Origin: Pedobacter sp.
GTDB lineage: Bacteria > Desulfobacterota > Desulfuromonadia > Desulfuromonadales > Syntrophotaleaceae
Length of the DNA: 64,000 bases
Direction: 5' to 3'
Assembly (NCBI GenBank): GCA_050253415.1
Contig: JBFWJC010000001.1
Span: 712,679-776,678, forward strand
Shown here one piece after another: positions 12,129 to 55,289 of this stretch (position 1 is the first letter of the stretch; each line of letters opens with the position of its first letter). Made by a program: the position numbers and the translations under genes. Below the pieces are notes generated by a model. It had not been told where the DNA came from. It did no database searches and saw nothing but the letters and a program-made list of their open reading frames with translations.

Positions 12129-12280
12129 AAAGAAAAACTCCTCCTTGTGCCCAGGCAGGAGTGAGCACGAAGAGGAGCATGGTCCTTTGCATGTTCACAT
12201 TTACGATAAATGCGACAGCAACAGTAACGACCGCTTCAGCCCACCTTCCCATAAGCCCGGGGAAGATGATGTGGGATGTC

Positions 12281-12436
12281 CGAAACGGCAGGTATACTGG
12301 CTTGCGAATCATTCTCGGGACCGCCTTCCCAGCATGAGCGCCAGTGGCATGTTGATCCCTCGTCCTCGCTTACAGTGGCGGGTCCGCGGGGGATTTGCAC
12401 CCCTCTTCCCTCTTACGCCCTGAGGCGCCGTCGAAC
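12281..12436 (-). ncRNA. Cobalamin riboswitch upstream of btuB
   Basis: Minus strand AGGGAAG..GGTGCAAATCC..GCGGACCCGCCACTGTAA...GCCACTG...GGGAAGG...AAGCCAGTATACCTGCC (B12 box). Confidence 0.92.
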
Positions 12437-12446
12437 GTATACCGTA

Positions 12447-12475
12447 AATGTAACCTTATTGTATAAGATTGTAAA
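12447..12475 (-). promoter_or_regulatory. Putative sigma70 promoter for the btuB leader
   Basis: TTTACA-N17-TACATT immediately 5' of the riboswitch. Confidence 0.55.
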
Positions 12476-14588: not shown

Positions 14589-14634
14589 TTTGTACTTCCT
14601 CCCAATCTTTTACATCTGGAATGGTTCCGGGTAA

Positions 14635-14731
14635 AATCTCCTTTCCAAAAGGGAGGCGCCACTGTTTCCAGCGGAACCCGTCGGCCTGTCGCCATAAGGA
14701 CCTTCCCAGTAGGCAGCGAGGCTCGGAGATT
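14635..14731 (-). ncRNA. Moco/Tuco RNA motif (molybdenum/tungsten cofactor riboswitch candidate)
   Basis: Minus strand AATCTCCGAGCCT...TATGG...AGGCCGACGGG..CCGCTG-GAAA-CAGTGG-CGCCTCCCTTTTGGAAAGGAGATT; outer stem AATCTCC/GGAGATT; upstream of aor-moaD. Confidence 0.85.
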
Positions 14732-14787
14732 GGTAGTTTCGCATAAATCGCTGATGAAGATGTCAATGAACTTTTCCAAGTAGACAC

Positions 14788-25691: not shown

Positions 25692-27959
25692 TTACATTTC
25701 CTTCAGCAGTTTAACCGTCTGGCGGGCTGCTTCAGCAGGAACCAGACCGGTATCGGAAATACCGGACAAAACCTTGGAAGAGTCGTGGTCGACAGTACCT
25801 GCTTTAGCCCAGGTGCTGGGAGCGACTTTGACCAGATAAGCGGAGAAGGCATGATGGCCGCTACCCGGGCGTTCGCCGATGAGATGAACAATGGCCTTAG
25901 GAGTGGTGCCAGCTTTGGTAAACAAAACTTCACCAGCTTTGTAGCCAGCGCGAACGCGGCCGCCGGTCACGACGATGTTTTTATCGGACAGGGTCAATCC
26001 GGCTTTTTTGCACTGTTTTTTCAGTTCGTTCAGGTAAGGCATCAGGTGCCCATCATCCATGATCGCCTTGGCGTTCAGACCGTCGGAGATGACAACCTGT
26101 ACGTCAGGGGCTTTGTTGCCCCAAGAGGCAGACAGTTTGCCCAGGGTGGCAACAGCCGCGTCGGACAACTCTTCACCGGTGCCCGGTGCGGAGATGTAGT
26201 TTTCGCGATCGTGAGCCTGAGATTTAATGCTCACGGCATTGGGGATGGAACCGATGAATTCAGGAGTGAACTCGGCCCACAGGCTGATTTTGGCGTCGTC
26301 ATACAGGTCGTGGATACGCTTGTTGGTGACAGGTTCCAGATCCCATACGTTTTCGCCATAGCCTACGGCCAGGTCGACACCGCGGCTGCGTACGTTTTTA
26401 ATGGATTGCTGGCCTTCAGCATAGATTTCCTTGAAGGAGCGGGTGTCACCTTTGGCCTGACGGAATTTGTAGTAAACCCAGGCAGGATCGCCAAAGTGCT
26501 TGGTCGGTTTGCCGTTGGCGTCGATGACTTCGATTTTTTTGTAGAAGTCCCACATGGCGTCGTTGACTTTAAAGCCGAATTTTTCGCGCAGGCGCACGTG
26601 GTCCTGGAAACCGGTGGTCAGGTAGCTGAGCATCGGGTCGTTACGGGTCGGCAGAGCCATCAGGTAGGCCGGGTTGGCCGGGGCGATCTGATCCTGGCAC
26701 CAGGCCAGGTCGTCGAGGGTTACAGGCATATGCAGGGTCGAGCAGATGTCGAGACCCAGCACCAGGCCGTGCAGTTTACCCATGACGATGTCTTCCAGAC
26801 AGGCGCGTACCAGCTGTTCGCGGGTTTTGAAGACCTCGGGACCGATGAAGCCGGCCACGTCGTTGACGTGCAGCCATACCTGATCCTCGGTGACGCCCTT
26901 GGCTTTGGCGATTTCCTGTTTCAGGGCGCGAGAGAACCCGTATTTACGGGACTCGTGGACGACCATGTCGAAGCCGTGGCCGTGACCGTTGGTGTAGTCG
27001 GCACCCTGGCCGGTTTCGAAATAGAGGCCGTAGGGACCCTTACGCATTTTTGCGTAGTCGATCATTTTCTGGATGGTCAGGTCGAAGGTCTTGTTGGCGC
27101 TTTCGGTACCGGCGAGGCTCTGGAACCAGATAGCGGTGGAGCCGGGCTTGGCTTCTTCCGCGGCAGCCTGACCGTCGATGTGGGACAAAACACACCAGGG
27201 GATGGTTTTTTCCAGGCCGAAAGCATCGACGATTTCTTTAAGACCTTCTTCGACGCGCAGGGTTGCTTCGAGTTGGCTGTCGACCGGGTTGGTACCGATG
27301 ACGATGTCACCGACGCCATAGGCGAAGCCATTAAGCGTCTGCATCTGAATGTCTTCTTTGTTGTCGGTCGGCGAGTTGGGCTGAATGCGGGCGCCGATGT
27401 AACCCTTAGCGCCGATTTTGGTGCCGGGCAGGGTGTTGAAAATCTTCTGGCCAATGCGGGTCAGTTCGGCGTTGGACATCAGTTTGACCACGGAACCGAT
27501 CACATCGCTGTGCAGACCGCCCATAATGGCTTTGATGTCTGCTTCGGGCTTGGTGAGCAGAAAGTTTTTCAGCTCGCCCATGGTCATGTTTTTGATTTTG
27601 TTGTATTTAGCCTTGTCGGTGGTTTGGCGGATCAGGGTGTCCTGGCCATCCACGAACAGCGAATGATCGTTGAGGTCCTTGATCTTGGTGTTGGCCAGCA
27701 ATTTGCGGGCGTTTTCGCGGTCCGCTTCGGTGTCTGCCGCTACCCCGAGGGCCTCGTCGCCTTCTTTAAAGGCATTGGCGGCGCCGATTACCTGCTGATA
27801 GGTGGTTTGGTCAAACTTCCCTTTGGTGCGATTGATGTACTGCATGACGTCTTCACCGGGCTTGACGCTGCCGATGGTGACGGCTCCGGCCATGCTGGCC
27901 AGAAAGGTCATTACCAGTGCGCCGGTAATGCCTGCCACGAATTTCCCCTTTTGTAACAT
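25692..27959 (-). CDS. eutBC: Fused ethanolamine ammonia-lyase large+small subunit with signal peptide, copy 1
   Basis: EutB motifs RIQPN, GDIVIGTNPV, LYFETGQG, VNDVAGFIGPE, DPMLSY; EutC motifs VVISDGL, GRVRAG, LIGERPG. ATG 27959 after GGAGG; N-terminus MLQKGKFVAGITGALVMTFLASMAGA. Confidence 0.92.
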   Translation of the reverse strand: MLQKGKFVAGITGALVMTFLASMAGAVTIGSVKPGEDVMQYINRTKGKFDQTTYQQVIGAANAFKEGDEALGVAADTEADRENARKLLANTKIKDLNDHSLFVDGQDTLIRQTTDKAKYNKIKNMTMGELKNFLLTKPEADIKAIMGGLHSDVIGSVVKLMSNAELTRIGQKIFNTLPGTKIGAKGYIGARIQPNSPTDNKEDIQMQTLNGFAYGVGDIVIGTNPVDSQLEATLRVEEGLKEIVDAFGLEKTIPWCVLSHIDGQAAAEEAKPGSTAIWFQSLAGTESANKTFDLTIQKMIDYAKMRKGPYGLYFETGQGADYTNGHGHGFDMVVHESRKYGFSRALKQEIAKAKGVTEDQVWLHVNDVAGFIGPEVFKTREQLVRACLEDIVMGKLHGLVLGLDICSTLHMPVTLDDLAWCQDQIAPANPAYLMALPTRNDPMLSYLTTGFQDHVRLREKFGFKVNDAMWDFYKKIEVIDANGKPTKHFGDPAWVYYKFRQAKGDTRSFKEIYAEGQQSIKNVRSRGVDLAVGYGENVWDLEPVTNKRIHDLYDDAKISLWAEFTPEFIGSIPNAVSIKSQAHDRENYISAPGTGEELSDAAVATLGKLSASWGNKAPDVQVVISDGLNAKAIMDDGHLMPYLNELKKQCKKAGLTLSDKNIVVTGGRVRAGYKAGEVLFTKAGTTPKAIVHLIGERPGSGHHAFSAYLVKVAPSTWAKAGTVDHDSSKVLSGISDTGLVPAEAARQTVKLLKEM

Positions 27960-28082
27960 TCTGTTACCTCCGTCTCGTTTGATGGGGGTGCTATCCGGTC
28001 TGCGACAAACGTCGCAGGCGGAGCATGATGAGGTTAAAGTGTGGGAGATGTCTTTGATGATCAGCAACACCTCCCACAGCGC

Positions 28083-33809: not shown

Positions 33810-34338
33810 TTCAAGTTCGCCGGTCCCGGCCGGCAGCCGGGATACTTTCTTTGCAAGGCCCCAAAGAAAGTATCCAAAGAAATGGCCTTGGCGTGCGCCT
33901 ACCCCACTGGTGCGAAGAGGAGATGGCTTTGCGAACCGGCCATGCGATCCCGGAACAACACGTCTGCGGGCGCTCCACTTGCCACCAGGGGCGGTCCGCC
34001 ACCGGTGAAGGAGGATCTATTCAACACCGGCGCTGCGGGTAAAGGCACACCGACAACCCGGCATTAAAGATTTGGGAGCAGGTTTTGTCTATGCTTTTCA
34101 CCCAATAGCACCTTGACGCCAGCCTCGCAAGGGGAGCAACGTCCATCTCTGGCAAGTAATTCGCGCAAGAGAAACAGTTCCAAGAAACCAGCGGGATGAC
34201 CAATCGGTGCCACCGTTGTGAAATCCGCTGTCCTTCGCGACAACATCGCCCCCCGCAGGGGAAAGCCATTTTTTGCTTACTTTTTGTTGGCGTGAAAAAA
34301 AGTAAGGCGCCGGGCGGGGGCGCCACCCCGCGGTCTTG
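33810..34338 (-). repeat. Structured intergenic repeat element, type A (full copy)
   Basis: Shares both ends (CAAGACCGCGGGG... and ...CCGGCTGCCGGCCGGGACCGGCGAACTTGAA) and the interior with the other type A copies. Confidence 0.9.
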
Positions 34339-34377
34339 AAGTCCGGGCGAGTACCGTGTGCTGCGAAAACAAATACT

Positions 34378-36838: not shown

Positions 36839-36938
36839 GGACTTACTCCTTGGAAAGGTGTTCGGCGAGCGGTGATATGTCATCCGAAACCTGAAATTCT
36901 TGCATTAATCTTTGAACTTCACTTCAAACTATCAACTA

Positions 36939-37530
36939 CAAGACCGCGGGGTTGCGCCCCCGCCCGGCGCCTTACTTTTTGTCCAAGCCAACAAAAAGTA
37001 AGCAAAAAATGGCTTTCCCCTGCGGGGGGCAATGTGGTCGCGAAAAGTGGCGGATCCCAAAACGATGGCGTCAACCCATCGTGCCACTGGTTTCTTGGTA
37101 CTGTTTCTTTTACGCAGGTTACTGAATCAAGAGGACAGTTGCTCCTCTTGCGAAACGGGCAGCAAGGTGTTGTTGAGTGAAAAGCTTAAGCAAAACCTGA
37201 ACCCAAATCTTTGCAGAGCCGGATCTCGGTGTGCCTTTACCCGCAGCGACGGTGTTGAAAAGATCCTCCTTCACCGGTGGTAAATCACCTCTGGTGGCAA
37301 GTGGAGCGCCCGCAGACGCGCCATTCCTGGATCGCAGCGAGTGTGCGTTGAGCCTGATTCCTCCGCGCCAGTGGTGTCGGCGCAGCCAAGGCCATTTCTT
37401 TGGATACTTTCTTTGGGGCCTTGCAAAGAAAGTATCCCGGCTGCCGGCCGGGACCGGCGAACTTGAAGTTAAGGTTTCAAGACTTCCGACAACCAAACAC
37501 CAACTTCAACACCGCGGGGTCGCGTCTCCC
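36939..37530 (+). repeat. Type A repeat (full copy to ~37467) plus linker and the start of a second copy
   Basis: Same sequence as the other type A copies, opposite orientation to 33810-34338. Confidence 0.9.
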
Positions 37531-37536
37531 TAGCCT

Positions 37537-38733
37537 CTACCAGACCACGATCATCACCCAAGTACAGAACAGCACGAAACAAACCCTTAACACCTGCGCA
37601 CTGACAGCCATCACCAGGCCGGGTCGTGCGCCGAGGGTGGCCAGGTAGGTGGGCAGGGCGTGGCGCAGGGTACGAATCGGGGCGGTGATGACCGAACCGA
37701 GCAGGATCACGGTGACGGCCTGTTTGATGGACAGGCTGCCGGCATCGACGAAGTTGGCTGCCGCGATGGCGCCGTTATACATATTGACCGCCTGGGCCGG
37801 GATAATGGCTACCGCCTGCGGTGGCAAGAAAGCGGGTTTGAACACACTGGGCAGCCACACCGCCAGGTATTCGAAAACCTTGCATTGTTCCAGCAGCGCC
37901 ATGGCCGCGAAGGTCGGTACCACGTACAGCAGCAGGCGCCGGATGGTGCGCCGGGATCGCTTCCATACCCGTTTCCAGAAATCCACACTGGCAAAAGCCG
38001 GTCGTTGCAGTGTTTTGCCGTTATCGGCAACGGCCTGGCCAGGGACATTGAAACCGGCCCGGTCTTCATTCCACCGCTGGCTGAGCCAGCTGGAAACCAT
38101 CAGCACCAGCACGATTTCCAGGCCGATGGCGGCCAGTCTTACCCCGAACAGGGCACCGGTAGCCATCCAGCCGAAAGCGAAACCCAGTGGCACGATAAAG
38201 GTCGGCAGATGGGCAAACAGCGAGATGCAGGACACCACCAGTACGGAGGTATAGAGATGGCGGTTGTTAATAACCCCCTCGTCGCGGTACGAGACCAGCA
38301 TGCTGTTGGCTACCGCACCCGATTGAAAGGCCATGATAAAGGCCGGAGCTGCCGCGCGGGGCAGGCGTCCCAGTCGGATCAGCGGCCAGGCCAGCACCGA
38401 TAAAGCACTTATCCAGCCAGCCACCTCCAGAATCTGACCGATGAGGATACCTGCGGCAATGATAAAGCCCAGTTCCACCAGCAATACCGCTTTTTGCGGC
38501 CAGAAAGGGAGTTTGCGTTTCCAGCTGCTGTAGGCGGAAGGCCGGGATCTTTCTTGGCGGCGTGCCTGCTCCAGAGCGCGGCCCCGTTCCCCTTCGGCCC
38601 GGATTTTGCCAGGTTTTGACGTAGCGACTTCGGTGGTGGCTGAATGTTCCATGGCTGCAACAGGACAGACGTGTCCCATTGATCCCAACCCGAGAGTCAG
38701 CAAGACCAGCAGCAATAGCAGGGTGCGTCGCAT
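37537..38733 (-). CDS. Nucleoside-recognition (Gate) domain membrane protein; possible cobalt/corrinoid transporter
   Basis: Multi-TM; PLIRLGRLP..AAPAFIMAFQSGAVANSML and FAHLP motifs; located inside the cob operon. Confidence 0.7.
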   Translation of the reverse strand: MRRTLLLLLVLLTLGLGSMGHVCPVAAMEHSATTEVATSKPGKIRAEGERGRALEQARRQERSRPSAYSSWKRKLPFWPQKAVLLVELGFIIAAGILIGQILEVAGWISALSVLAWPLIRLGRLPRAAAPAFIMAFQSGAVANSMLVSYRDEGVINNRHLYTSVLVVSCISLFAHLPTFIVPLGFAFGWMATGALFGVRLAAIGLEIVLVLMVSSWLSQRWNEDRAGFNVPGQAVADNGKTLQRPAFASVDFWKRVWKRSRRTIRRLLLYVVPTFAAMALLEQCKVFEYLAVWLPSVFKPAFLPPQAVAIIPAQAVNMYNGAIAAANFVDAGSLSIKQAVTVILLGSVITAPIRTLRHALPTYLATLGARPGLVMAVSAQVLRVCFVLFCTWVMIVVW

Positions 38734-38737
38734 ACGT

Positions 38738-39613
38738 TTATCCTTCTGCTGCCTGGAGGGCGGTCATAGCGGCATCAAGGTGACGGAAGAAGATGTCGCG
38801 GATGCCGGCGTTGTAGCCGAGCGGCCGGGAACAGGTCGCTTCAGGGGCGCCAATCAGGCTTTTCCACGAATCGGGTTCGTCACCCAGGACATCGTTCTCG
38901 ATGTGATCGCCGGCTACCAGCATCAACGGCACGAAATGCACCGCCCCCGCTTTTGCGGCATGTTCCCGCGCCCAGGGCAATTTGGCCAGGCCGGGTTTTC
39001 CTTCCACGCTGCAGATGACGGCGTTGTCGCATTGCGATTCGACGGTAGCGGCAAAGTCCAGTAACGCCTGATTGTAGCGGGAGTATTTGCTGTTGCCGTG
39101 GGTGACGAACACCGTCGGACGGTCCGAAGCGATGTCTTCGCTTACCGCGGCAGCTACGGCACGGATATCTTCAGGCGTTGCCATCAGCGGTTGCCCGTAA
39201 GATACTTTCACGCTGCCGGTCGGGACCTGGGCTATTTCCGCATCCTTTTCACCGGGCACGATCATCAGCGATTGCAGTACGGCCTGACGATAGCCCTGGG
39301 CCTGAAGTTCTGCGAGGGTTTCTGGCAGGTTACGCACCTGGACCCCGCGTGTGTGCAGCCGATCCACAACGGTCTGGGAGGTGAAAGCCAGGAAGATGTC
39401 ATGGTCTGGATAGCGTTCCTGCGCTGCCTGCTCGATGACGTCGAACACTTCCCGACCTTTGTCCGAAGTGGTACCGAAGGCGACCAGCACGATGGCCGGT
39501 GTTGTTTGGCTCATGATTGCATCCTTCCCAACAGCAGTGCCGGACTCTTTCGCCGCACAGCCGGGCAGGGCAAAAAGCAGCAGGCATGCGATGAATCTGG
39601 ATAGAAGGGTCAT
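38738..39613 (-). CDS. cbiK: Sirohydrochlorin cobaltochelatase CbiK with lipoprotein signal
   Basis: AIVLVAFGTT, AFTSQ, IVPGE, THGN, VEG, PLMLVAGDHIEND, PLG; lipobox LPGC. Confidence 0.88.
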   Translation of the reverse strand: MTLLSRFIACLLLFALPGCAAKESGTAVGKDAIMSQTTPAIVLVAFGTTSDKGREVFDVIEQAAQERYPDHDIFLAFTSQTVVDRLHTRGVQVRNLPETLAELQAQGYRQAVLQSLMIVPGEKDAEIAQVPTGSVKVSYGQPLMATPEDIRAVAAAVSEDIASDRPTVFVTHGNSKYSRYNQALLDFAATVESQCDNAVICSVEGKPGLAKLPWAREHAAKAGAVHFVPLMLVAGDHIENDVLGDEPDSWKSLIGAPEATCSRPLGYNAGIRDIFFRHLDAAMTALQAAEG

Positions 39614-39694
39614 TGATGTTCTCTCCTAAATGGGCTGACCAGTTTTCAAAACCTTAATTTCAAGTCCACATTCCGGTTTTGGCCTTAGATGTGG

Positions 39695-40828
39695 TTTGGC
39701 TTATGTTTTTCACTCAACAACACCGTGCTGCCCGTTTCGCAAGAGGAACAACGGTCCTCTTGATTCAGTAATCCGCGTAAGAGAAACAGTCCCAAGAAAC
39801 CAGTGGCACGTTGGGTCGACGCCATCGTCGTGGAATCCGCCACTTTTCGCGACCCCATTGCCCCCCGCAGGGGAAAGCCATTTTTTGCTTACTTTTTGTT
39901 GGCTTGGACAAAAAGTAAGGCGCCGGGCGGGGGCGCGACCCCGCGGTCCTGAAGTCAGGGTTGCGTAGCGTGTTCCGAGTGCTGAGTTCAAAAGCTTACA
40001 ATCCTAAAGTCAAGTTCGCCGGTCCCGGCCGGCAGCCGGAATACTTTCTTTGCAAGGCCCCAAAGAAAGTACCCAAAGAAATGGCCTTGGCTGCGCCGAC
40101 ACCACTGGCGCGGAGGAATCAGGCTCAACGCACACTCGCTGCGATCCAGGAATGGCGCGTCTGCGGGCGCTCCACTTGCCACCAGAGGCGATTTGCCACC
40201 GGTGAAGGAGGATCTTTTCAACACCGTCGCTGCGGGTAAAGCAACACTGACATCCGGTTCCGCTAAAAAAAATTGGGTTGAGGTTTGGCTTATGCTTTTC
40301 ACTCAACAACACCGTGCTGCCCTTTTCGCAAGAGGAGCAACGGTCCTCTTGATTCAGTAATCCGCGTAAGAGAAACAGTCCCAAGAAACCAGTGGCACGA
40401 TGAGTCGACGCCATCGTTGTGGAATCCGCCACTTTTCGCGACCACATTGCCCCCCGCAGGGGAAAGCCATTTTTTGCTTACTTTTTGTTGGCTTGGACAA
40501 AAAGTAAGGCGCCGGGCGGGGGCGCGACCCCGCGGTCCTGAAGTCAGGGTTGCGTAGCGTGTTCCGAGTGCTGAGTTCAAAAGCTTACAATCCTAAACTC
40601 AAGTTCGCCGGTCCCGGCCGGCAGCCGGGATACTTTCTTTGCAAGGCCCCAAAGAAAGTATCCAAAGAAATGGCCTTGGCTGCGTCGACACCACTGGCGC
40701 GAAGGAATCAGGCTCAACGCACACTCACTATGATACTGAAATCGGGCGTCTGCGGACGCTCCATTTGCCACCATAGGCGGTTCGCTACCGGTGAAGGAGG
40801 ATCTTTTCAACACCGTCGCTGCTGGGTA
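39695..40828 (-). repeat. Tandem type A repeats, 589-bp period (half + full + half copy)
   Basis: 39696 matches 40285 and 40010 matches 40599; the linker between copies is near-identical. Confidence 0.9.
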
Positions 40829-40915
40829 GTCAAAACCGACAGCTCGGTTTTGCATTAGCGTCGACGCGATTTCCGTTACGGAGGGCCGATGCCTCAGCCC
40901 TCCGTATCTAGCTGC

Positions 40916-42331
40916 TTACAGCGAAGTCAAATCGATGCTGGTCGTGGTGTCCGCATCCCAATCTTCCCACAGATAGGTGTCTTCCTTACCGTCGGCGATC
41001 AGACGCAGGGCATAGCGTACCTGCTCTTCGTACAGTTCGCAGAATGCGCCGGGGACGTTCTGGCCACCGTTCATTTCATGCGCTTCGGCGGGGCAGGGCG
41101 AACCGCAGAAATGGCGGATTGCGCAGTTTTTACAGGGGTCGATGTTTTCCACCACGCGTTCGGTGACAGCGCGGAAGGGTTCGCTTTGCAGCACCGCCTC
41201 GATATCGTCGGTGTACAGGTTGCCGCCTTTGAAGCGTTCCACACCGACGAATTCGCTGCAGGGGAACATGTCGCCGGAGGCGGACAGGGCGAAGAAACAG
41301 CGACCACCGCCGCAGGGCGAGATGTCGCACATCAGGCGGCGGGCCGCCGGTGCCACGACGCTGACCAGCACATTGGCGAAGTTGGCCACTACCAGCTTGC
41401 GGCCGGTTTTTTCGTACAGCTCGTAGGTGCGATCGAGGGCCTTGAGGTACCACTTGGCCATTTCATGATCGAGGGGCTTGATGTCGCGCGCGCCCTGGCG
41501 GGTGCAGCGTACCTGATTGAGCATGCAGATCGGAACCTCATGCTCGTGGAAGAAATCGACCATCTCCACCAGTTTGTCCATATTCTCCTGGGTGACGGTG
41601 CAGATGACGTTGAAATTGGCGTAGCCCTTGAGTTTGTTCATGGCCCGGACCACGTGGGCGTAGACACTGTCGCCTTCCCAGGTTTTGCGGGTGCGGGTGC
41701 AGATGTCTTCGAGGTGGCTGTCGAGGGACAGACCGATGCCGATGTTGCGCTCGGTAAGAAAGGCAATAGCTTCGTCATCCAGCAATGTGCCGTTGGTCTG
41801 TACGCCGAAACGGAAATCGTCCAGGTAGGCATCGATGCCGGCAAAAACCGCTTCGCGGGCCATCATAGGCTCGGCGCCGTGGAAGATGATCTGCGGCTTG
41901 TGACCCTCGGGAACGGTGGTTTTAAAGTATTCCTTGAGGATGCCCAGGGCTTTGATCAATTCGTCCGGAGTCATGGTCTTGCCGTCGCTGCGCATGTCCT
42001 CCGGGATGTAGCAGTAGGAACAGTTGAGATTGCAGCGGTCGGTGGGGTTGAAATAGACCGCCGACGGTTTCAGGCCGAAGCGCAAAGCGTCGATCTCCTC
42101 AAGGAATTCATCGCGACGGCTCAGAAACTGCTGCATGAAAGTGCTTTCGTTGCACAGCGCCTCACCCAGTTTGTCCTTCTGGATAAGGGACCAGAACGCC
42201 GCATCGGGATCGAGCAGCGCGACATACTCGGGGTGATCGATGCTGATGGGCAGCAAGCTGGGGCCGTTGCCGGTGTTGAAGTGGATGCCGCGGGAGCAGG
42301 CCTTGTTGTCAAACGTTTTTGTCTCGGACAT
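40916..42331 (-). CDS. cbpB: Peptide-modifying radical SAM/SPASM enzyme (CbpB-like)
   Basis: CNLNCSYC, FHGAEP, QTNG, SLD, SPASM CGGGRC...GDMFPC...CKNCAIRHFCGSPC...FC; ATG 42331 after GAGGAG. Confidence 0.85.
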   Translation of the reverse strand: MSETKTFDNKACSRGIHFNTGNGPSLLPISIDHPEYVALLDPDAAFWSLIQKDKLGEALCNESTFMQQFLSRRDEFLEEIDALRFGLKPSAVYFNPTDRCNLNCSYCYIPEDMRSDGKTMTPDELIKALGILKEYFKTTVPEGHKPQIIFHGAEPMMAREAVFAGIDAYLDDFRFGVQTNGTLLDDEAIAFLTERNIGIGLSLDSHLEDICTRTRKTWEGDSVYAHVVRAMNKLKGYANFNVICTVTQENMDKLVEMVDFFHEHEVPICMLNQVRCTRQGARDIKPLDHEMAKWYLKALDRTYELYEKTGRKLVVANFANVLVSVVAPAARRLMCDISPCGGGRCFFALSASGDMFPCSEFVGVERFKGGNLYTDDIEAVLQSEPFRAVTERVVENIDPCKNCAIRHFCGSPCPAEAHEMNGGQNVPGAFCELYEEQVRYALRLIADGKEDTYLWEDWDADTTTSIDLTSL

Positions 42332-42413
42332 GCAGTATCTCCTCAAATAGCGATATGGTTATCGGTTCCGCACTCATATTCGGCGGTCTTATACCTGGAT
42401 TGATTTTTAGGGT

Positions 42414-42437
42414 GCGGAGCGCTCGGGAGCGCTCCGC
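42414..42437. other. GC-rich hairpin between the peptide gene and the radical SAM gene
   Basis: GCGGAGCGCTC-GG-GAGCGCTCCGC perfect inverted repeat. Confidence 0.75.
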
Positions 42438-42484
42438 GGGGTTTCGTTTTTATGCGAGAAAAGGGTAGTTTCTCGCATGAAAAC

Positions 42485-42586
42485 TTAGTTGGTCTTCTTG
42501 TCCATCAAGATGTAATGGGAAAGACCGGTGCCGCTCGCCGTGCAGGATTTGCGGTAGGCGATGACTTCCTTGCGCTGTTGCTTCAT
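42485..42586 (-). CDS. cbpA: 33-aa RiPP-like precursor peptide (CbpA-like) MKQQRKEVIAYRKSCTASGTGLSHYILMDKKTN
   Basis: Below the ORF-track cutoff. Very strong RBS AAGGAGGT, ATG 42586, TAA 42485; directly upstream of the SPASM radical SAM gene. Confidence 0.88.
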   Translation of the reverse strand: MKQQRKEVIAYRKSCTASGTGLSHYILMDKKTN

Positions 42587-42706
42587 GCAATCACCTCCTT
42601 TCTTTTTGGATGGTGGAACAAAGCTCATCCCATCTGGCTGCGACGGATGTTGTTATGTTTTGATTCCCAACTAGCAACTTCGAAATATTCTTTATCTCTT
42701 TACTTC

Positions 42707-43412
42707 CAAGACCGCGGGGTTGCGCCCCCGCCCGTCGCCTTACTCTTTTAAAACGCGTCAAAAGAGTAAGCAGAAAAGCGCGCCCCGCCTCCTTGCCCGC
42801 CTGCGGCGGGTACCCTGCGCTACGCAACCGCCGGGCGGGCGGAGAAGATTCGCTGCGCTCAGTCCTCCGCCTGTTTCGCCCGTCGCTTGCTTCGCTCCGG
42901 CAGCGTCACAGGGGAATTCAAAATCAAAAACAAACGCAAAAGCGTTTATCAAATCTCGCAGTGCCGGTGCAGGCAACGGCTGTGCTGCGAGCTGTGCGCA
43001 TCACTTCTGCTGATAAATGCGCCCTACGAAGACGTACTGCTTATCATTTGCTGTGACCGTTAGATGTCGCATTCCGTGTCGCGACAGACATAACGGCGAA
43101 GCCAGACGTTACGTCCTTTCTTTGCTTATTTTCTTTAGACGGGTAAAGAAAGTAAGCCGGCTGCCGGCCGGGACCGGCGAAGTTGTTCTTTTAGTCTTTA
43201 AAATCAAGACCGCGGGGTCGCGCCCCCGCCCGGCGCCTTACTCTTTTAAAACGCGTCAAAAGAGTAAGCAGAAAAGCGCGCCCCGCCTCCTTGCCCGCCT
43301 GCGGCGGGTACCCTGCGCTACGCAACCGCCAGGCGGGCGGAGAAGATTCGCTGCGCTCAGTCCTCCGCCTGTTTCGCCTGCCGATTGCTTCGCTCCGGCA
43401 GCGTCACAGGGG
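42707..43412 (+). repeat. Structured repeat, type B (full copy 42707-~43185 plus truncated tandem copy from 43205; 498-bp period)
   Basis: Same left and right ends as type A, different interior; about 205 bp duplicated at 42707 and 43205. Confidence 0.88.
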
Positions 43413-43440
43413 ACTCAACGGCAAAGACGGAGAGTCAAAT

Positions 43441-44115
43441 TCAAAAAGACTGTCTTCCCAACGCCAACTCACACAGAGCATGAATCACGCTGACCGCCAG
43501 CGGCGAACCGCCGCGCCGTCCTTCGATGGTGATGTAAGGCACGCCCATCTCCATCAATTCCTGTTTGCTTTCCACCACGTGAACGAATCCGACCGGCATG
43601 CCGATGACCAGTGCCGGACGCAGATCGGTTTCCTGGATCAGCCGGTTGAGTTCAAGAAGTGCGACCGGCGCATTGCCGAATACCGCGATGCCGCCGTGGA
43701 GTTGCTGTTCGGCTTTGCGCACGGCGTAAAGCGAACGTGGCAGGCTGGCCTGCCGTGCTTTTTCGGCGACGTCGGCATCGGCCACGTGGCACAGGATCGA
43801 CTCCGGCTGGTACGTGGGACATACCTTTTTCAGGCGTGCCAGCGACAGGCCCGACCGGATCATGTTGGAATCGGCGTAGATGGGCGCCCCGCCGCGCAGC
43901 GCCTGGCAGGCCGCATCGATGGCGTCGGGTGAAAAGCGCACCATGTCGAGCAGGGAAAAGTCAGCGGTGGTATGCACCATACGTCGCACCACCGGCCATT
44001 GCTCCGGCGTGAAGGTGTGGGCCGGTGCTTCCTGGTCGATGATAGCCAGGGAGCGGTCTTCGATCTGTTGCCCGCTTAAGGGGTTGTTCAGTAAATCGTG
44101 GATCAACGGTTTCAT
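43441..44115 (-). CDS. cbiC: Cobalt-precorrin-8 methylmutase
   Basis: IEDRSLAII, RMVHTTADF, GNAPVAL, IGMPVGFV, GRRGGS. Confidence 0.95.
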   Translation of the reverse strand: MKPLIHDLLNNPLSGQQIEDRSLAIIDQEAPAHTFTPEQWPVVRRMVHTTADFSLLDMVRFSPDAIDAACQALRGGAPIYADSNMIRSGLSLARLKKVCPTYQPESILCHVADADVAEKARQASLPRSLYAVRKAEQQLHGGIAVFGNAPVALLELNRLIQETDLRPALVIGMPVGFVHVVESKQELMEMGVPYITIEGRRGGSPLAVSVIHALCELALGRQSF

Positions 44116-45494
44116 GATTCTCCTCGGCAAAAATCGATAAAAGCCCTTGCCGCGCCGGGGCGGCTGGCAAAATGGACGTGGACATAGCTGGCGAACAGGC
44201 GGCTGCGTTGATAGCCTTCCGCTACCGGTTTGCCGGCGCGGCGATAGCTGACCTGCCAGGCGCTCTGCCAGTCCGGGGTGGCCGGTTCGGCAATGGCTTC
44301 GGAATAATGGAATTCGTGGCCGCGCAGGCAGGTGCCGGCAGCTCCGAAAGGCCCATCGGCAAGCTGGCGAACTTCCGCATAGCCAAGCCGCTTGCGGGTG
44401 GCCAGCATGCGGGTGGCAAAGGGCAGGGCTCCGGTCATGGCATGTCGGCTGCCGTCACGCAGTTCGATCCCTTCGGACAGGTACATGAGTCCGCCGCATT
44501 CGGCGTAGATCGGGCGGTTGGCGACGGCGAAAGCGGCCACGGCCTTGCGCATGGTGTGATTGGCTTCCAGCGTGGCGGCATGTTCCTCGGGATAGCCACC
44601 GCCAAGGAACAGAGCATCCAGATCGGCGGGCAGCGTGTTGTCATGCAGGGGGGAAAACCGCACCAGGGTCGCGCCGGCTTCTTCCAAAGCCTGAAGGTTG
44701 TCCGGATAGTAGAAATGGAACGCTTCATCAAACGCCAGGCCAATGCGAATCGGCCGATCTTGGTTGCCGGAGTCCGACGAAACGGGGATAGTCGGGCCTG
44801 ACGGTACCTTTTCGGCAAGGCCGAGGATGCGCGGCATGTCGAGCTGCCGTTCAACGGCGTCGGCCAGACTGTTCAGTGCTTCGGTCGTCAAATTCTGACG
44901 GTCTGCGGTGACCAGACCCAGATGGCGGCTGGGCAAGGTCGGCAGGGAATCCCGCATGACCGCTCCGGCCAGCGGCGGCAGGCCGACGGCGGCCAGGGCG
45001 TCCCCCAGCCAGTCGGCATGGCGCGCCGACCCGCAGCGGTTGGCGATGGCACCAGCCAGGTGCAGCTCGGGGTCGAATTCGGCGTACCCTTTGACCAGGG
45101 CGGCCAGGCTGCGGGCCATGCCATGGGCGTTGACCACCAGCAGTACCGGTGCGTCGAGCCAGCGGGCGATTTCTGCGGTACTGCCCTGGGCGCTTGCCGG
45201 GTCAGCGCCATCGAACAGGCCCATGACCCCCTCGATAATGGCGATATCCGCATCGGCACTGGCTTTTGCAAACCGTTCCTGCACGTAGTCGGGGCCGCAC
45301 ATCCAGCCGTCGAGGTTGATACAGGGACGACCGCTGGCCAGCGACAGCCAGGTGGGGTCGAGGAAGTCGGGTCCGACCTTGAAGGTCTGGACGTTCAAGC
45401 CCCGCCGGCGCAGGGCGGCTGTCAGCCCCAGAGTCAGGGAGGTTTTGCCGACGCCGCTGGAGGTGCCGGCGATGACCAGTCTTGGACAACTCAT
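44112..45494 (-). CDS. cbiA: Cobyrinate a,c-diamide synthase
   Basis: IAGTSSGVGKT, FKVGPDFLDP, IEGVMGLFDG, SRHLGL, AECGGLMYL, GHEFHYS. Confidence 0.95.
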   Translation of the reverse strand: MSCPRLVIAGTSSGVGKTSLTLGLTAALRRRGLNVQTFKVGPDFLDPTWLSLASGRPCINLDGWMCGPDYVQERFAKASADADIAIIEGVMGLFDGADPASAQGSTAEIARWLDAPVLLVVNAHGMARSLAALVKGYAEFDPELHLAGAIANRCGSARHADWLGDALAAVGLPPLAGAVMRDSLPTLPSRHLGLVTADRQNLTTEALNSLADAVERQLDMPRILGLAEKVPSGPTIPVSSDSGNQDRPIRIGLAFDEAFHFYYPDNLQALEEAGATLVRFSPLHDNTLPADLDALFLGGGYPEEHAATLEANHTMRKAVAAFAVANRPIYAECGGLMYLSEGIELRDGSRHAMTGALPFATRMLATRKRLGYAEVRQLADGPFGAAGTCLRGHEFHYSEAIAEPATPDWQSAWQVSYRRAGKPVAEGYQRSRLFASYVHVHFASRPGAARAFIDFCRGES

Positions 45495-46225: not shown

Positions 46226-47185
46226 TTAGTTGGTCGTTAGCCATATCCACCCGAATCTCATGCTCAAAAATGCCAGCGCCGCCAACAGCGAAGTGAGCAG
46301 CATCAGCTGCACCGCTGCTGCAATGTGCCGGGATGCCAATGGTTGCCCGGCATCGCCAAAATAGGGCATGTCGGTCAGTTTGCCCTGGCGGTAGACCGGA
46401 CCGCCCAGTTGAATCTCCAGGGCGCCGGCGGTGGCGGCTTCGCTCCAGCCTGAGTTGGGGCTGGGATGGTTGCGCCAGTCGCGCAGGGCGATGCGCCAGG
46501 TGTGTTTCGGGCGCAGGCCGAGCAGGGCGGCTGCGGTTACCGTGATCGGCAGGGTCAGGCGCGCCGGCAGGTAGTTGAGCACGTCGTCAAAGCGGGCCGA
46601 GGCCCAGCCGAACTGCAGGTAACGTTCGTTTTTGTAGCCGAAGGTCGAGTCGAGGGTGCTGGCGGCCTTGTACGCCAGGGCGCCGATCGGACCGAGCAGC
46701 ACCGCCCAGAACAGCGGCGCGGTGACGCCATCCACGGTGTTTTCCGCCACGCTTTCCACCGCCGCACGCACTACCCCGGACCGGTCGAGAGGAGCGGTGT
46801 CGCGGCCGACCAGCCAGCCGACGCGTTGCCGGGCCAGTTCCAGGTTGCCAAGGCGCAGGGCCTTGAGAACCTGCCAGGCGTGCACGGCCAGGTCGCGGGC
46901 GGCGAAGCAGGTCGAGAGCAGCAGGATGCCCAGGGCGTCACCCGCCCAGGGGTGCAGGCGGTATGCTGCGGTAAGCAGCAGGGTGGACACTCCTGCCGTG
47001 GTGGCGACGACGATCATGGTCGTGACGATGCCGGCCAATCGCGGATTGGTAATACTGCGGCGCAGCGGGGCTTCCAGGGCCATGGCCAGCCGTCCCATGC
47101 CTTTGACCGGATGCGGCAGGCGGCGCGGGTCGCCCCACAGCAGATCGAGGCCGATGGCGGCCAGTATCTGCATCTCGAGAGTCAT
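46226..47185 (-). CDS. cbiB: Adenosylcobinamide-phosphate synthase
   Basis: [40 protein letters not shown]. Confidence 0.95.
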
Positions 47186-49776
47186 CGCAACCCCATAAGG
47201 CGATAGATGGCGGGGATGTCGAGACTTTGGCGCACGGCGTCGGCCAGCCGTTCAAAAGCCGGTTCCAGATCGTAGCTGGCCTGGATGGTGCCGAGGGGCT
47301 TGAGACCCTTGCGTTGCCGCAAACGGTCGATGAACCAGCGGCGGAAACCATCGGCGTCGAGCAGGCCGTGCAGATAGCTGCCCCAAAGCAGGCCGTCGCT
47401 GCGGCAGGCGCCCATGGCCTGTCCGCTGCTGCCGATCAGAGCTGGCGGAATGTCTTCTGCCCGGCTCTGGCCATGATGGATTTCGTAGCCGAAGACTTTC
47501 ATGCCGGAAATGCGGTGGCGGGCTTCGGTGCGCGTCAGGGTTTTGTCCTGCTCGAGAACCGTGTCGATGGGAAGCAGCCCGAGACCGACCAACTCGGTTC
47601 CCGGTGATTCGATGCCATGCGGATCGTTGATCGAACGACCGAGAATCTGGTAACCGCCGCAAATGCCGACGATTTCACAGCGGCCCGCGGCGGCCAGCTC
47701 TTGCAGACTGCGGTCGAGGCCGACGGCGCGCAGAAAGGTCAGGTCGCCGATGACGTTTTTGCTGCCCGGCAGGATCACGGCATCCGGGCGACCAAGATCC
47801 TGTACGCGTCGTACGATGCGCAAGCGGACATCCGGTTCGATGCGCAGCGGTTCCACATCGGTGAAATTGGAAATGTGCGGCAGGTCGAGCACGACGATAT
47901 CTACGCCGTCGTCCGCGGAACGCTGGTCGTCGAACAGACCGGACTTGAAGCCGACGGAATCTTCTTCCGGCAGGCCCAGATCCTTCAGGTAGGGCACCAC
48001 CCCGAATACCGGACGTCCGGTGTGCTCCAGGGTGTAATCGAGCGCATCTTTGAGCAGGCTGGCCTGACCCCGAAACCGGTTGACGACGAATCCGGCGATC
48101 TGGGCGCGTTCACTTTCCGACAGGACTTCCATGGAACCGACAAACGAAGCGAAAACGCCGCCGCGGTCGATATCGCCGACCATCAGCACCGGAGCTTTTG
48201 CATACTGGGCCATTTTCATGTTGACGATGTCATGGGCCTTGAGATTGACCTCGGCAGGGCTGCCGGCGCCTTCCAGTACCACGGCGTCATACCCGGCGGC
48301 CAAAGAGTCGTAGGATTCCTTGACCCGTTCGAAGGCTTCGGCCTTGTAACGGAAATATTCCATGACTTTCATATTGCCGACCGGTTTGCCGCAAACGATC
48401 ACCTGGCTGCCGGTGTCGCTGCTCGGCTTGAGCAGGATGGGGTTCATGCGCACGTCCGGATCCAGTCGCGCGGCCTGGGCCTGCACGACCTGGGCGCGCC
48501 CCATCTCTCCGCCGTCGCGGGTGACGAAGGAGTTCAACGACATGTTCTGGGCTTTGAACGGCGCCACCCGGTAGCCGTCCTGCAGCATGATGCGGCACAG
48601 GGCGGCGGCCAGAACACTCTTGCCCGCATTGGAACTGGTGCCCTGGAACATGATGGCCGGTGTATGGTGGCGGGTGGTGATCAGGGGCGCCATGAAAAGT
48701 TCCTGGCGCAGAGCTTCGACCAGTTGCTGGTTTTCGGGTTCGGTGCGCACCGCGATCCGGAAGAAACGTCGGTCAAGGCCTTCGAAATTATCGCAGACCC
48801 GGATGGCCAGGCCGCGTTTGAGTAATCGCGCAGCCAGGGCGGGTGCGTCCATGGAGGTGCGATCACAGCGCACCAGCATGAAATTTGCCTGCCCCGGATA
48901 GACCTTCAGGTAGGGAATCTGCTCCAGTTGCATACGCAATTTGTCGCGCAGAACACCGATGGCGGCCCGTGACTGTTGGGTGTACTCGGTATCGAGCAAG
49001 GCAGCCTCGCCGACCTTCTGGGCGATCGTATTGACCGACCAGGGGGGTTGCAGAGATTTGACCTTCTGCACGGTTGACGGCGAAGCCACGGCCAGGCCCA
49101 GGCGCAATCCGGGGATGGCGAAAATCTTGGTCAGAGACAGCATTACCACGACATTGCCGGGGCGGTTGACGGTGAGGCTGTCGAAATCTTCCACAAAATC
49201 GGCAAAAGCCTCATCCACGATAAAGGTCGCGTTAGGGAAACGCCGCGCCAGATGCCGTAGGCGATGCGCGTCGAAGGTCCGGCCCGTCGGATTGTTGGGT
49301 TGACCCAGGGGCACCATGGTGGGGGTGTCCGCCAATGCCTTCAAGGCTGCTTCGACCTGATCGAAGTCGAGGGCGAAGCCGGTTTCTTCTGACATAGGCA
49401 GAATGTGAATTCTCAAACCGGCGACACGCGCGGCACTTGCGTAATCGACATAGCTCGGCACCGGGATGAGTGCCTGCCGAACCTTGAGAGCATGGGGAAG
49501 CAGGTAAAACAGCTCGGTGGAACCGTTGCCGATAAGAATCTCGTCAGGATTTACGCCATAACGCTCGCAAGCGGCCTCGACCAATGCCTGGCCCTCAGGG
49601 TCGGGGTAGTGCACCAACGAGCTGATGCTGCCACTGATGCGGGCGCGCAACCACTCGGGGGGGCCCAGAGGGTTGATGTTGGCCGAAAAGTCGCGCAGTG
49701 ATTCGGGGTTCACACCGGCGGTCATGGCCAATTGTCGCAGGTGGCCTCCGTGTCGCCAGTTGCCGGATTCCGTCAT
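47182..49776 (-). CDS. cbiP: Fusion of L-threonine-O-3-phosphate decarboxylase (CobD) and cobyric acid synthase (CbiP/CobQ)
   Basis: N-half: [36 protein letters not shown]-half: [37 protein letters not shown]. Confidence 0.93.
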
Positions 49777-49817
49777 GGTTTTATCCTTTTTATAGTTTCA
49801 ATCTGCTCTATCAACTA

Positions 49818-50716
49818 CAAGACCGCGGGGTTGCGCCCCCGCCCGGCGCCTTACTTTTTGTCCAAGCCAACAAAAAGTAAGCAAAAAATGGCTTTCCCCT
49901 GCGGGGGGCAATGTGGTCACGACAGGTGGAAGATTCCACGACGATGGCGTCAACCCATCGTGCCACTGGTTTCTTGGTACTGTTTCTCTTACGCAGGTTA
50001 CTGAATCGAGATGGCCATTACTCCTCTTGCGAAATGGGCAGCAAGGTGTAGTTGAGTGAAAAGCCTAGGCAAAACCTCAACCCAAATCTTCGCCGAGCCG
50101 GAACTCGGTGTGTCTTTACACGCAGCGACGGTGTTGAAAAGATCCTCCTTCACCGGTGGCAAATCAACTCTGGTGGTAAGTGGAGCGCCCGCAGACGCGC
50201 CATTCCAGGATCGCTGCGCCGGTTCGCAAAGCCATCTCTTTTTCGCGCTAGTGGTGTCGGCGCAGCCAAGGCCATTTCTTTGGATACTTTCTTTGGGGCC
50301 TTGCAAAGAAAGTATCCCGGCTGCCGGCCGGGACCGGCGAAGTTGAAGTTAAGGTTTCAAGGCTTCCGACAACCAAACACCAACTTCCAGACCGCGGGGT
50401 CGCGCCCCCGCCCGGCGCCTTACTTTTTGTCCAAGCCAACAAAAAGTAAGCAAAAAATGGCTTTCCCCTGCGGGGGGCAATGTGGTCGCGAAGGGTGACG
50501 AATCCTATAATCCTTGCGTTAATTGATCATGCCGCTGGTTTCTTGAAACTGTCCCTCTTGCGAGAGGGATAGCTAAAGAGAGCATTTACTCCTCCTGCGA
50601 TGTGGTCATTAAGGTGTTATTGGGTGAAAAGCTTAAGCAAATCCTCAACCCATAACATCAGCAATACCGGTTTGCCGGTGTGTCCTTACCTGCCGGCCGG
50701 GACCGGCGAACTTGAA
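49818..50716 (+). repeat. Tandem type A repeats (full copy plus an internally deleted, diverged copy from ~50387)
   Basis: Same ends, and the same linker (GTTAAGGTTTCAAG.CTTCCGACAACCAAACACCAACTTC) as at 37468-37506. Confidence 0.9.
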
Positions 50717-55008: not shown

Positions 55009-55092
55009 AACGTTTTTTATCCGCCTGTTACGGTTTGCACACGGCGAATCTTTGTCCGGCCTCAATCCTCGAAGGTCGTAACAGCACGTGTG

Positions 55093-55256
55093 CAGGACAG
55101 GCAGGTCTTCTGGCTCCCGGGTCATTCTTTCGGCCACGCCTTCCCTTTCGTCGTTACGAAAAGTGGCATTCTGTGGCTTTCGTCACCGGTTACAGCGGCG
55201 GGACCGCGACGGATTCACACCGTCTTCCCTGTTAGGCTTTAAAGCACCTGTCCTTG
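55093..55256 (-). ncRNA. Cobalamin riboswitch heading the cob operon
   Basis: AGGTGC...AACAGGGAAG..GGTGTGAATCC..CGCGGTCCCGCCGCTGTAA...GCCAC...GGGAAGG...AGCCAGAAGACCTGCC; outer stem AGGACAGG/CCTGTCCT. Confidence 0.95.
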
Positions 55257-55261
55257 GTCAA

Positions 55262-55289
55262 ATTGTAAGGCACCAGGTCGAAGCTGCAA
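55262..55289 (-). promoter_or_regulatory. Putative sigma70 promoter for the cob operon
   Basis: TTGCAG-N16-TACAAT directly 5' of the riboswitch. Confidence 0.5.

Follow-up and report, generated by a model that had tools for sequence, protein, structure and literature searches.

A two-gene unit, cbpA-cbpB, lies within a run of cobalamin genes in a 64,000-nucleotide (nt) stretch of Pedobacter sp. DNA (contig JBFWJC010000001.1; the whole stretch is hereafter called the window) and encodes a small precursor peptide and a radical S-adenosylmethionine (SAM) enzyme with a SPASM domain. Judged by its matches to family models, the pair genuinely belongs to CbpA/CbpB, a system that has already been catalogued. 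Its role can best be explained, with a confidence that we would place about midway between doubt and belief, by a CbpB-modified CbpA serving the late handling of corrinoids. The family is already known and annotated, and the locus is an ordinary member of it rather than a new kind of system. What the present analysis adds is a near-invariant peptide, a supported mode of binding between peptide and enzyme, and the finding that the pair also occurs in genomes that lack corrin-ring synthesis.

The cbpAB pair and its conservation

The CbpB protein matches the NCBIfam model TIGR04163 (rSAM_cobopep) with 790.7 bits over model positions 2-428 of 428 (curated cut-off 375), and the CbpA peptide matches TIGR04164 (cobo_pep) with 60 bits over positions 1-25 of 25 (curated cut-off 35). 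An earlier reading of the window, made from the sequence only, had recognized the two as the CbpA/CbpB pair, which these TIGRFAM hidden Markov models bear out, both proteins scoring above the curated cut-offs. The 33-amino-acid (aa) open reading frame (ORF) quoted in that reading is present exactly, as is the near-perfect ribosome-binding site in front of it (Table 1), and the gene that follows does encode a radical SAM/SPASM protein, both the Radical_SAM (71.1 bits) and the SPASM (30.2 bits, cut-off 21.5) domains of Pfam being found above their cut-offs. The source genome holds a single copy of each gene. An identical 33-aa peptide is already present in public protein collections, where close cluster members carry the name 'modified peptide precursor CbpA' and the Syntrophotalea carbinolica protein WP_011340163.1 is named CbpB; the closest public records of the pair are Pelobacter/Syntrophotalea bins. 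In the available parts of the P. carbinolicus genome paper, the homologue Pcar_0479 is given only as a radical SAM oxidoreductase and is placed between cbiC (Pcar_0480) and cbiK (Pcar_0478), within a 43-gene ethanolamine/cobalamin cluster (PMC3543383).

The sequence-only reading had made its case depend on the conservation of the peptide. A CbpA homologue is found upstream of cbpB, on the same strand, in 78 of the 82 loci with upstream sequence (the window and five genomes of the same order included), and the four loci without CbpA have at most 177 nt of such sequence. In 77 loci, a start codon with a GGAGG-type site could be identified, the resulting peptides being 28-55 aa long, and in most of these relatives the site stands at the same position as the Shine-Dalgarno sequence of the window. 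While an alternative in-frame ATG at 42628 would yield a 47-aa product, both the relatives and the conservation of the ribosome-binding site speak for the 33-aa form. The cbpB gene has a site of its own, GAGGAG, 7 nt before its ATG.

Across many phyla, the peptides have a near-invariant core, VIAYRKxCxAxGTGLSHYIL. No variation is seen at R12, C15, G19, G21, L22, or H24 among 50 aligned peptides or among 73 distinct core DNAs, and I9, A10, K13, S23, Y25, and K31 are conserved in at least 90% of the aligned peptides. Among the 73 distinct cores, Thr20 is replaced by Ala, Val, or Ile in 11 and Tyr25 by Phe in 4. The mean entropies at the first, second, and third codon positions of the core are 0.58, 0.37, and 1.48 bits, respectively (same 73 core DNAs); the third positions are thus the most variable, a pattern that signals selection on the protein. 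By such comparisons, cbpA is shown to be a translated-looking peptide gene, and both cbpA and cbpB are shown to be under strong purifying selection. Some precursors have merely 2-3 residues N-terminal to the conserved VIAYRK segment. One relative (locus L074, 7807-8001, in a bin labelled Rickettsiales) encodes two complete conserved units in tandem within a single ORF, which overlaps cbpB by 4 nt. In the enzyme, the cysteines of the CxxxCxxC motif (C100, C104, and C107) are invariant among 17 aligned sequences, and so are eight SPASM cysteines (C335, C340, C358, C400, C403, C409, C413, and C431), for which cluster binding is predicted.

Predicted binding and modification of CbpA

The AlphaFold model of the CbpB monomer (predicted local distance difference test score, pLDDT, 78.8; predicted TM-score, pTM, 0.82) displays an N-terminal domain before the barrel, in which strands at residues 27-29, 36-41, and 46-51 are followed by two helices (beta-beta-beta-alpha-alpha). 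The closest solved relative of CbpB is CteB (PDB 5wgg/5why), both by sequence (E = 5.9e-32) and by fold, where the similarity extends over the full length including the N-terminal domain (E = 3.8e-19, TM 0.64/0.72, identity 22%). The sulfatase-maturating enzyme anSME is a further near solved relative by sequence and by fold.

The complex of CbpA with CbpB was predicted from our own alignments, with three 4Fe-4S clusters and SAM included as ligands. Its interface score (ipSAE) is 0.81 (0.81, 0.78, and 0.85 in separate runs) compared with 0.00 for the best control; at least 70% of the contacts are common to the runs, and the partner pLDDT is at least 59. Of 157 solved complexes, 116 come up to this mark, as do 2 of 215 mismatched pairs, rates that can be transferred only roughly to a model built with own alignments and ligands. 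The model has 171-172 residue-pair contacts between peptide and enzyme. Residues 7-10 of CbpA lie against the CbpB strand 46-51, residues 11-13 against CbpB 326-328, and C15 against CbpB 329, beside the first auxiliary-cluster cysteines, while residues as far as position 28 line the barrel. As a model, the prediction supports binding of CbpA by CbpB.

It can be hypothesized from these contacts that the beta-beta-beta-alpha-alpha domain of CbpB would capture CbpA by its VIAYRK segment, which would join the domain as a further beta strand, and that the segment from Cys15 to Tyr25 would thread past the auxiliary-cluster region into the barrel, where chemistry initiated by the 5'-deoxyadenosyl radical would make one modification of the peptide. 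By analogy with CteB and PapB, this modification would most likely be a thioether from Cys15 to a residue in the G-x-G-L-S-H stretch. Such a single cross-link between the invariant Cys15 and that stretch is our best guess as to the product, a tentative one and rather more apt to be wrong than right. The modified peptide would stay in the cell and may serve salvage, adenosylation, nucleotide-loop assembly, or the escort of corrinoids; it would have no part in cobalt insertion or in corrin-ring synthesis.

Association with cobalamin metabolism and rival explanations

Out of 8000 scored candidates, a protein search with CbpB gave 2509 relatives with E <= 1e-50. The 120 best of those listed, 64-93% identical to the query, bear source names such as Desulfomonile, Planctomycetota, Chloroflexi, Armatimonadota, and Tectomicrobia, among others. 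At least 588 stretches in contigs from one genome per species encode a CbpB relative. In the order to which the window belongs, CbpB was found in only 7 of 151 sampled genomes; the pair is therefore patchy and no universal part of B12 synthesis.

For a survey of the surroundings of the pair in 80 loci, all ORFs up to 8 kb away were clustered, no labels being assigned beforehand. The families found most often were CobQ (18 loci), a BtuD/FepC-like ATPase (17), CbiA (15), CbiB and CbiC (12 each), BtuF (11), CobO, BtuB, CobT, CbiM, and CobS (10 each), and BtuC (9). Nearly all frequent neighbour clusters thus belong to B12 biosynthesis or transport. Three exceptions (clusters 13, 18, and 22, with 5-7 loci each) are an ORF without annotation that overlaps cbpB in antisense orientation, a sigma-54 response regulator, and a likewise unannotated ORF of 106 aa. 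In 39 of the 80 loci, the pair has one or more neighbours from B12 biosynthesis or transport, with no family in more than 18, and no leader peptidase, exporter, or immunity gene recurs beside the pair in this clustering. Because no neighbour is constant, the conserved unit consists of cbpA and cbpB only. When 18 loci without a B12 neighbour were scanned, a cobalamin riboswitch was found directly upstream of cbpA in 14; for two of the other four, the upstream sequence is shorter than 330 nt. On these genomic grounds, cbpAB is shown to be a member of the B12 regulon.

A phyletic profile was drawn from 50 loci hand-picked from the 80 and spread over the list. A CobS match is found in 47 of these carrier genomes (44 over the cut-off), while CbiD is over the cut-off in 26 and CbiF/CobM in 23. 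Both CbiD and CbiF are missing from 22 carriers, of which 10 have genomes of at least 4 Mb; CbiH/CobJ is present in 1 of the 22, CbiB in 16 (14 over the cut-off), and a CobS match in 21. In total, 21 of the 50 lack CbiD, CbiF/CobM, and CbiH/CobJ altogether, and in such ring-less carriers the locus adjoins btuBFCD, cobO, and cobU/T/S. As far as gene content can tell, about four in ten carriers hence seem to live by the salvage of corrinoids, without ever inserting cobalt. Since many carriers are without corrin-ring synthesis, a role in cobalt insertion is disfavoured and one in late assembly, salvage, or corrinoid handling is favoured. With regard to the lower ligand, BluB (TIGR02476) is over the cut-off in 4 of 51 genomes and the ThiC-like TIGR04386, which we take to be tied to anaerobic benzimidazole synthesis, in 1 of 51, many genomes having short, unassigned ThiC-like matches of 480-630 bits.

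This profile bears most directly on the idea of a cobalt chaperone or cobalt-binding peptide, which goes back to the sequence-only reading and in which modified CbpA would bind Co(II) through Cys and His and deliver it to the CbiK/CbiX chelatase. Both residues are indeed invariant, and the pair often stands between cbiC and a chelatase gene or the gene of the cobalt transporter CbiM, the order cbiC-cbpAB-cbiX/cbiK-cbiM recurring in the window and in six loci (L025, L027, L039, L041, L051, and L077). Moreover, the P. carbinolicus paper, in the parts available, reports the lack of any cbiMNOQ homologue and describes cobalt uptake in the genus as unexplained (PMC3543383). Against a cobalt chaperone, nevertheless, stand the 21 carriers that have no apparent cobalt-insertion step and whose pair is accompanied by salvage and late-assembly genes; a thioether at Cys15 would also cost it a thiolate ligand, so that we regard it as improbable. 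Of the cobalt- or corrinoid-binding product suggested earlier, the cobalt part is weakened by the ring-less carriers, while the corrinoid part stands as possible. The conservation of both peptide and enzyme is also what would be expected of a system that makes a small peptide-derived cofactor, in the manner of pyrroloquinoline quinone (PQQ) from PqqA or mycofactocin from MftA; a redox mediator for the reduction of Co(II) to Co(I) before adenosylation would be a candidate, given that the adenosyltransferase gene cobO adjoins the pair in its 10 loci. Yet the system has just two conserved genes, with no recurrent peptidase or further tailoring enzyme, and Tyr25 can be replaced by Phe; this, too, makes for an unlikely account.

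It is harder still to see in CbpA the precursor of an exported natural product, be it an antibiotic, a signal, or a secreted corrinoid scavenger that re-enters through BtuB and BtuFCD. The architecture resembles that of peptides made on the ribosome and modified after translation (RiPPs), and genes for the TonB-dependent B12 receptor, BtuF, and BtuC adjoin in 9 to 11 of the 80 loci. Neither a protease nor an exporter or immunity protein recurs there, however, the near invariance of the peptide across phyla is unlike typical RiPP cores, and the precursors with 2-3 residues before the conserved segment have no separate leader to cleave; export is thus very improbable. The extensive and tight contacts of the complex model could likewise be those of a small subunit or regulator of CbpB, whose true substrate would then be a corrinoid or another small molecule, and a system of two genes, translationally coupled in 26 of 76 relatives, would agree with this. 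In the model, however, the peptide enters the barrel where the substrates of CteB and anSME lie, and the two tandem units in the single ORF of L074 are reminiscent of multi-core precursors. We give the subunit scarcely any more than an outside chance.

Several points weigh against a modified CbpA that serves late corrinoid handling. The complex model was read as a contact list, without the residue that faces SAM, and its score may partly reflect memory of the solved CteB-peptide complex. No PqqD- or RRE-type (RiPP recognition element) Pfam match is found in CbpB at E up to 1. As for the chemistry, CbpB falls below the cut-offs of the models for thioether maturases (PapB, NF047865, 135.7 bits vs. 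340; SCIFF, TIGR03974, 104.1 vs. 425), and models for non-thioether enzymes score it similarly (DynA, 133.2; anSME, TIGR03942, 121 with a cut-off of 349; HxsB, 112). With scores so similar for thioether and non-thioether models, and every one well short of its cut-off, the models do not tell which type of chemistry applies. The recurrent order with chelatase and cbiM genes fits a cobalt role. The ring-less carriers are mostly metagenome bins of unstated completeness, and the ring genes cluster together, so that their losses are correlated rather than independent. In the window, the riboswitch is only assumed to be co-transcribed with the pair, dispersed repeats that carry terminator-like stems being present between the genes. 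Lastly, the literature searched, with about 1.7 million PubMed Central articles outside its coverage, holds nothing on the chemistry, the role, or any modification of CbpA/CbpB, which agrees with the statement of the sequence-only reading that product and role are unknown; in the available part of the TIGRFAMs 2013 paper, the word cobalamin is absent.

Within late corrinoid handling, modified CbpA could be an unrecognized and widespread accessory factor that holds or escorts incomplete or base-off corrinoids in the cell, e.g., with the invariant His as axial ligand. So specific a version is unlikely, though worth keeping in mind. The biosynthesis and salvage of B12 are regarded as fully mapped, enzyme by enzyme, and an accessory factor of this kind, if real, would add a ribosomal-peptide component to the pathway in more than 10 phyla. 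Whatever its exact function, CbpA/CbpB is a riboswitch-controlled module of two genes with about 60-70% identity across many phyla, found in at least 588 species genomes. Its chemistry, once worked out, would probably bring to light a new kind of peptide modification or else a new helper in the handling of corrinoids. That its carriers are often unable to make the corrin ring directs attention to salvage and late assembly and not to cobalt insertion.

The locus in the window and comparison with known systems

The position between cbiC and cbiK and downstream of a B12 riboswitch, as given in the sequence-only reading, is correct, with the addition that the nearest same-strand cobalamin riboswitch lies 12.5 kb upstream and does not adjoin the pair. 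Downstream from it, the minus-strand run comprises a cobA/cysG-type methyltransferase gene, cobC, cobU, cobT, cobS, a cobD-cobQ fusion, cbiB, cobO, cbiA, and cbiC, then cbpA and cbpB, followed by cbiK, the gene of a membrane protein with a Gate domain, cbiL, cbiD, cbiE, cbiF, cbiG, cbiH, and cbiJ. The same-strand neighbours of the pair are all cobalamin genes. The name cbiC rests on equivalog matches below threshold (Table 1). The N-terminus of the CbiK-family protein has a lipoprotein-like signal (LPGC), and this protein and the Gate protein may form a periplasmic CbiK/transporter pair rather than include a cytoplasmic chelatase. The cobD-cobQ fusion is a single 864-aa ORF (47182-49776, minus strand) that joins threonine-phosphate decarboxylase CobD (residues 9-357) to cobyric acid synthase CobQ (374-861). 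At the end of the cobalamin run, a 792-aa ORF (25692-28070, minus strand) joins the ethanolamine ammonia-lyase subunits EutB and EutC, which matches the eut/cobalamin supercluster described for P. carbinolicus in the available parts of that paper (PMC3543383). A second cobalamin riboswitch (12268-12447), before a TonB-dependent receptor gene (10194-12128), and a nearby molybdenum-cofactor riboswitch (14622-14740) are found elsewhere on the minus strand.

Table 1. Features of the cbpAB locus and its surroundings, in window coordinates.
Feature	Position	Strand	Basis or remark
398-aa membrane protein, Gate (nucleoside recognition) domain	37537-38733	-	3' of cbiK; no NCBIfam match
cbiK, sirohydrochlorin cobaltochelatase family, downstream neighbour	38738-39613	-	Pfam CbiK 144.1 bits; NF047852 124.5 bits, cut-off 400
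Dispersed repeat, 589-nt unit, 2 tandem copies, between cbpB and cbiK	39690-40867		Repeat search
cbpB, 471-aa radical SAM/SPASM enzyme, N-terminal peptide-binding-like domain	40916-42331	-	TIGR04163, Pfam
Perfect 10-bp GC hairpin, 4-nt loop	42414-42437	-	Followed on the mRNA strand by ACCCUAAAAAUC, no U tract
First intergenic hairpin, 10-bp stem, A/U-rich flanks, just 3' of the cbpA stop	42452-42478	-	Sequence, folding
cbpA, 33-aa precursor peptide	42485-42586	-	TIGR04164 match; product MKQQRKEVIAYRKSCTASGTGLSHYILMDKKTN
Shine-Dalgarno AGGAGG of cbpA	42594-42599	-	Read from sequence; 7 nt before ATG
Dispersed repeat, 498-nt unit, about 1.5 copies, between cbiC and cbpA	42688-43413		Repeat search
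cbiC, cobalt-precorrin-8 methylmutase, upstream neighbour	43441-44130	-	NCBIfam precorrin-8X methylmutase, at most 177.6 bits, below cut-offs 261-311
Cobalamin riboswitch heading the gene run	55083-55266	-	RF00174 121.8 bits, gathering score 31.5

The pair is flanked on both sides by dispersed repeats. The 589- and 498-nt units occur in tandem and inverted, have a common 71-nt GC-rich module and terminator-like stems, and form arrays that are spread over at least four of the genome's contigs (44 and 50 BLAST pieces). Further intergenic repeats of this kind are present at 36935-37481, about 33811-34359, and 49814-50715. In the supplement of the P. carbinolicus paper, as far as available, the CbpB homologue has a 'multicopy sequence' entered on its 5' side (PMC3543383). 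Because repeats with terminator-like stems lie between the genes, co-transcription of the whole cobalamin run is an assumption only. No sigma-70-like promoter was found in 39500-43600, where the sigma-70 scan is uninformative for this organism.

The 153-nt gap between cbpA and cbpB contains two hairpins. The perfect GC hairpin pointed out in the sequence-only reading is real, and a stable stem recurs in other phyla. The 181-nt intergenic stretch folds at -52.2 kcal/mol (z = -4.84), and none of 200 shuffles folds as well. With sequence changes, the first hairpin is kept in the same-genus relatives L011, L016, and L017, and the GC stem in L013, L014, and L017. Among 76 relatives the gap is bimodal, with at most 12 nt or an overlap in 26 and at least 60 nt in 50. 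When the first 75 nt are folded, 44 of the 51 spacers of at least 60 nt (window included) reach z < -2; an unbroken stem of at least 8 bp is present in 25 of the 51, and a tail of at least five T on the mRNA strand in just 4. A strong stem 3' of cbpA is hence, to judge from these spacers, a recurrent but dispensable feature. As 26 of the 76 relatives have no room for a hairpin, the unequal mRNA levels that the sequence-only reading conjectured for peptide and enzyme are no general requirement of the system. A canonical intrinsic terminator was considered for the GC hairpin and ruled out, the T tract being on the plus strand only. It is plausible that the hairpins stabilize the 3' end of the cbpA transcript or partly end it. 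An RNA-library contig (run X6, 168 nt, 0 mismatches) spans 42438-42605 and thereby includes cbpA, 5' end and all, together with the first hairpin, breaking off where the GC hairpin begins on the mRNA strand; coming from one study with possible DNA carry-over, it is no evidence for a transcript end, and contigs from metagenomic RNA-labelled runs are in any case unable to reveal transcript levels or ends. In a Planctomycetota bin (L041:1012-1568), a 554-nt spacer between cbpA and cbpB has the usual GC hairpin followed by a tandem repeat array of short units.

Among known systems, CbpA/CbpB itself (TIGR04164/TIGR04163) is matched by the window pair in the order of peptide and enzyme and in the cobalamin context, with no difference seen; this family is defined by bioinformatics only. 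Closest in structure is CteB, a thioether-forming radical SAM/SPASM maturase of the SCIFF peptide CteA, which contains cysteine as CbpA does. The cross-link in CteA reportedly joins Cys32 to Thr37, a C-x4-T spacing equal to that of Cys15 and Thr20 in CbpA. CteA, however, carries six cysteines and CbpA one, and Thr20 of CbpA is not fully conserved. The maturases of PapB-type ranthipeptides (NF047865) provide the top characterized NCBIfam model after that of CbpB itself, yet one for which CbpB is far below the cut-off. PapB substrates have repeated Cys-X3-Asp motifs, whereas CbpA is without such motifs. With anSME (PDB 4k36-4k39), CbpB has in common the radical SAM and SPASM core, but anSME lacks the N-terminal peptide-binding domain. 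The sulfatase motif modified by anSME is C-x-(P/A)-x-R; the C-x-(A/P/T/S)-x-G of CbpA loosely resembles it, except that the residue at +4 is an invariant Gly and not Arg.

Ordinary RiPPs have hypervariable cores, unlike CbpA, whose level of constraint resembles that of PqqA or MftA. The PqqA/PqqE and MftA/MftC systems also combine a short, highly conserved precursor with a SPASM radical SAM enzyme and an intracellular role, although CbpB reaches only 55 bits with the mycofactocin maturase model (cut-off 265). While PqqA/PqqE and MftA/MftC require a separate PqqD-type chaperone, peptidases, and further enzymes, CbpA/CbpB consists of two conserved genes only.

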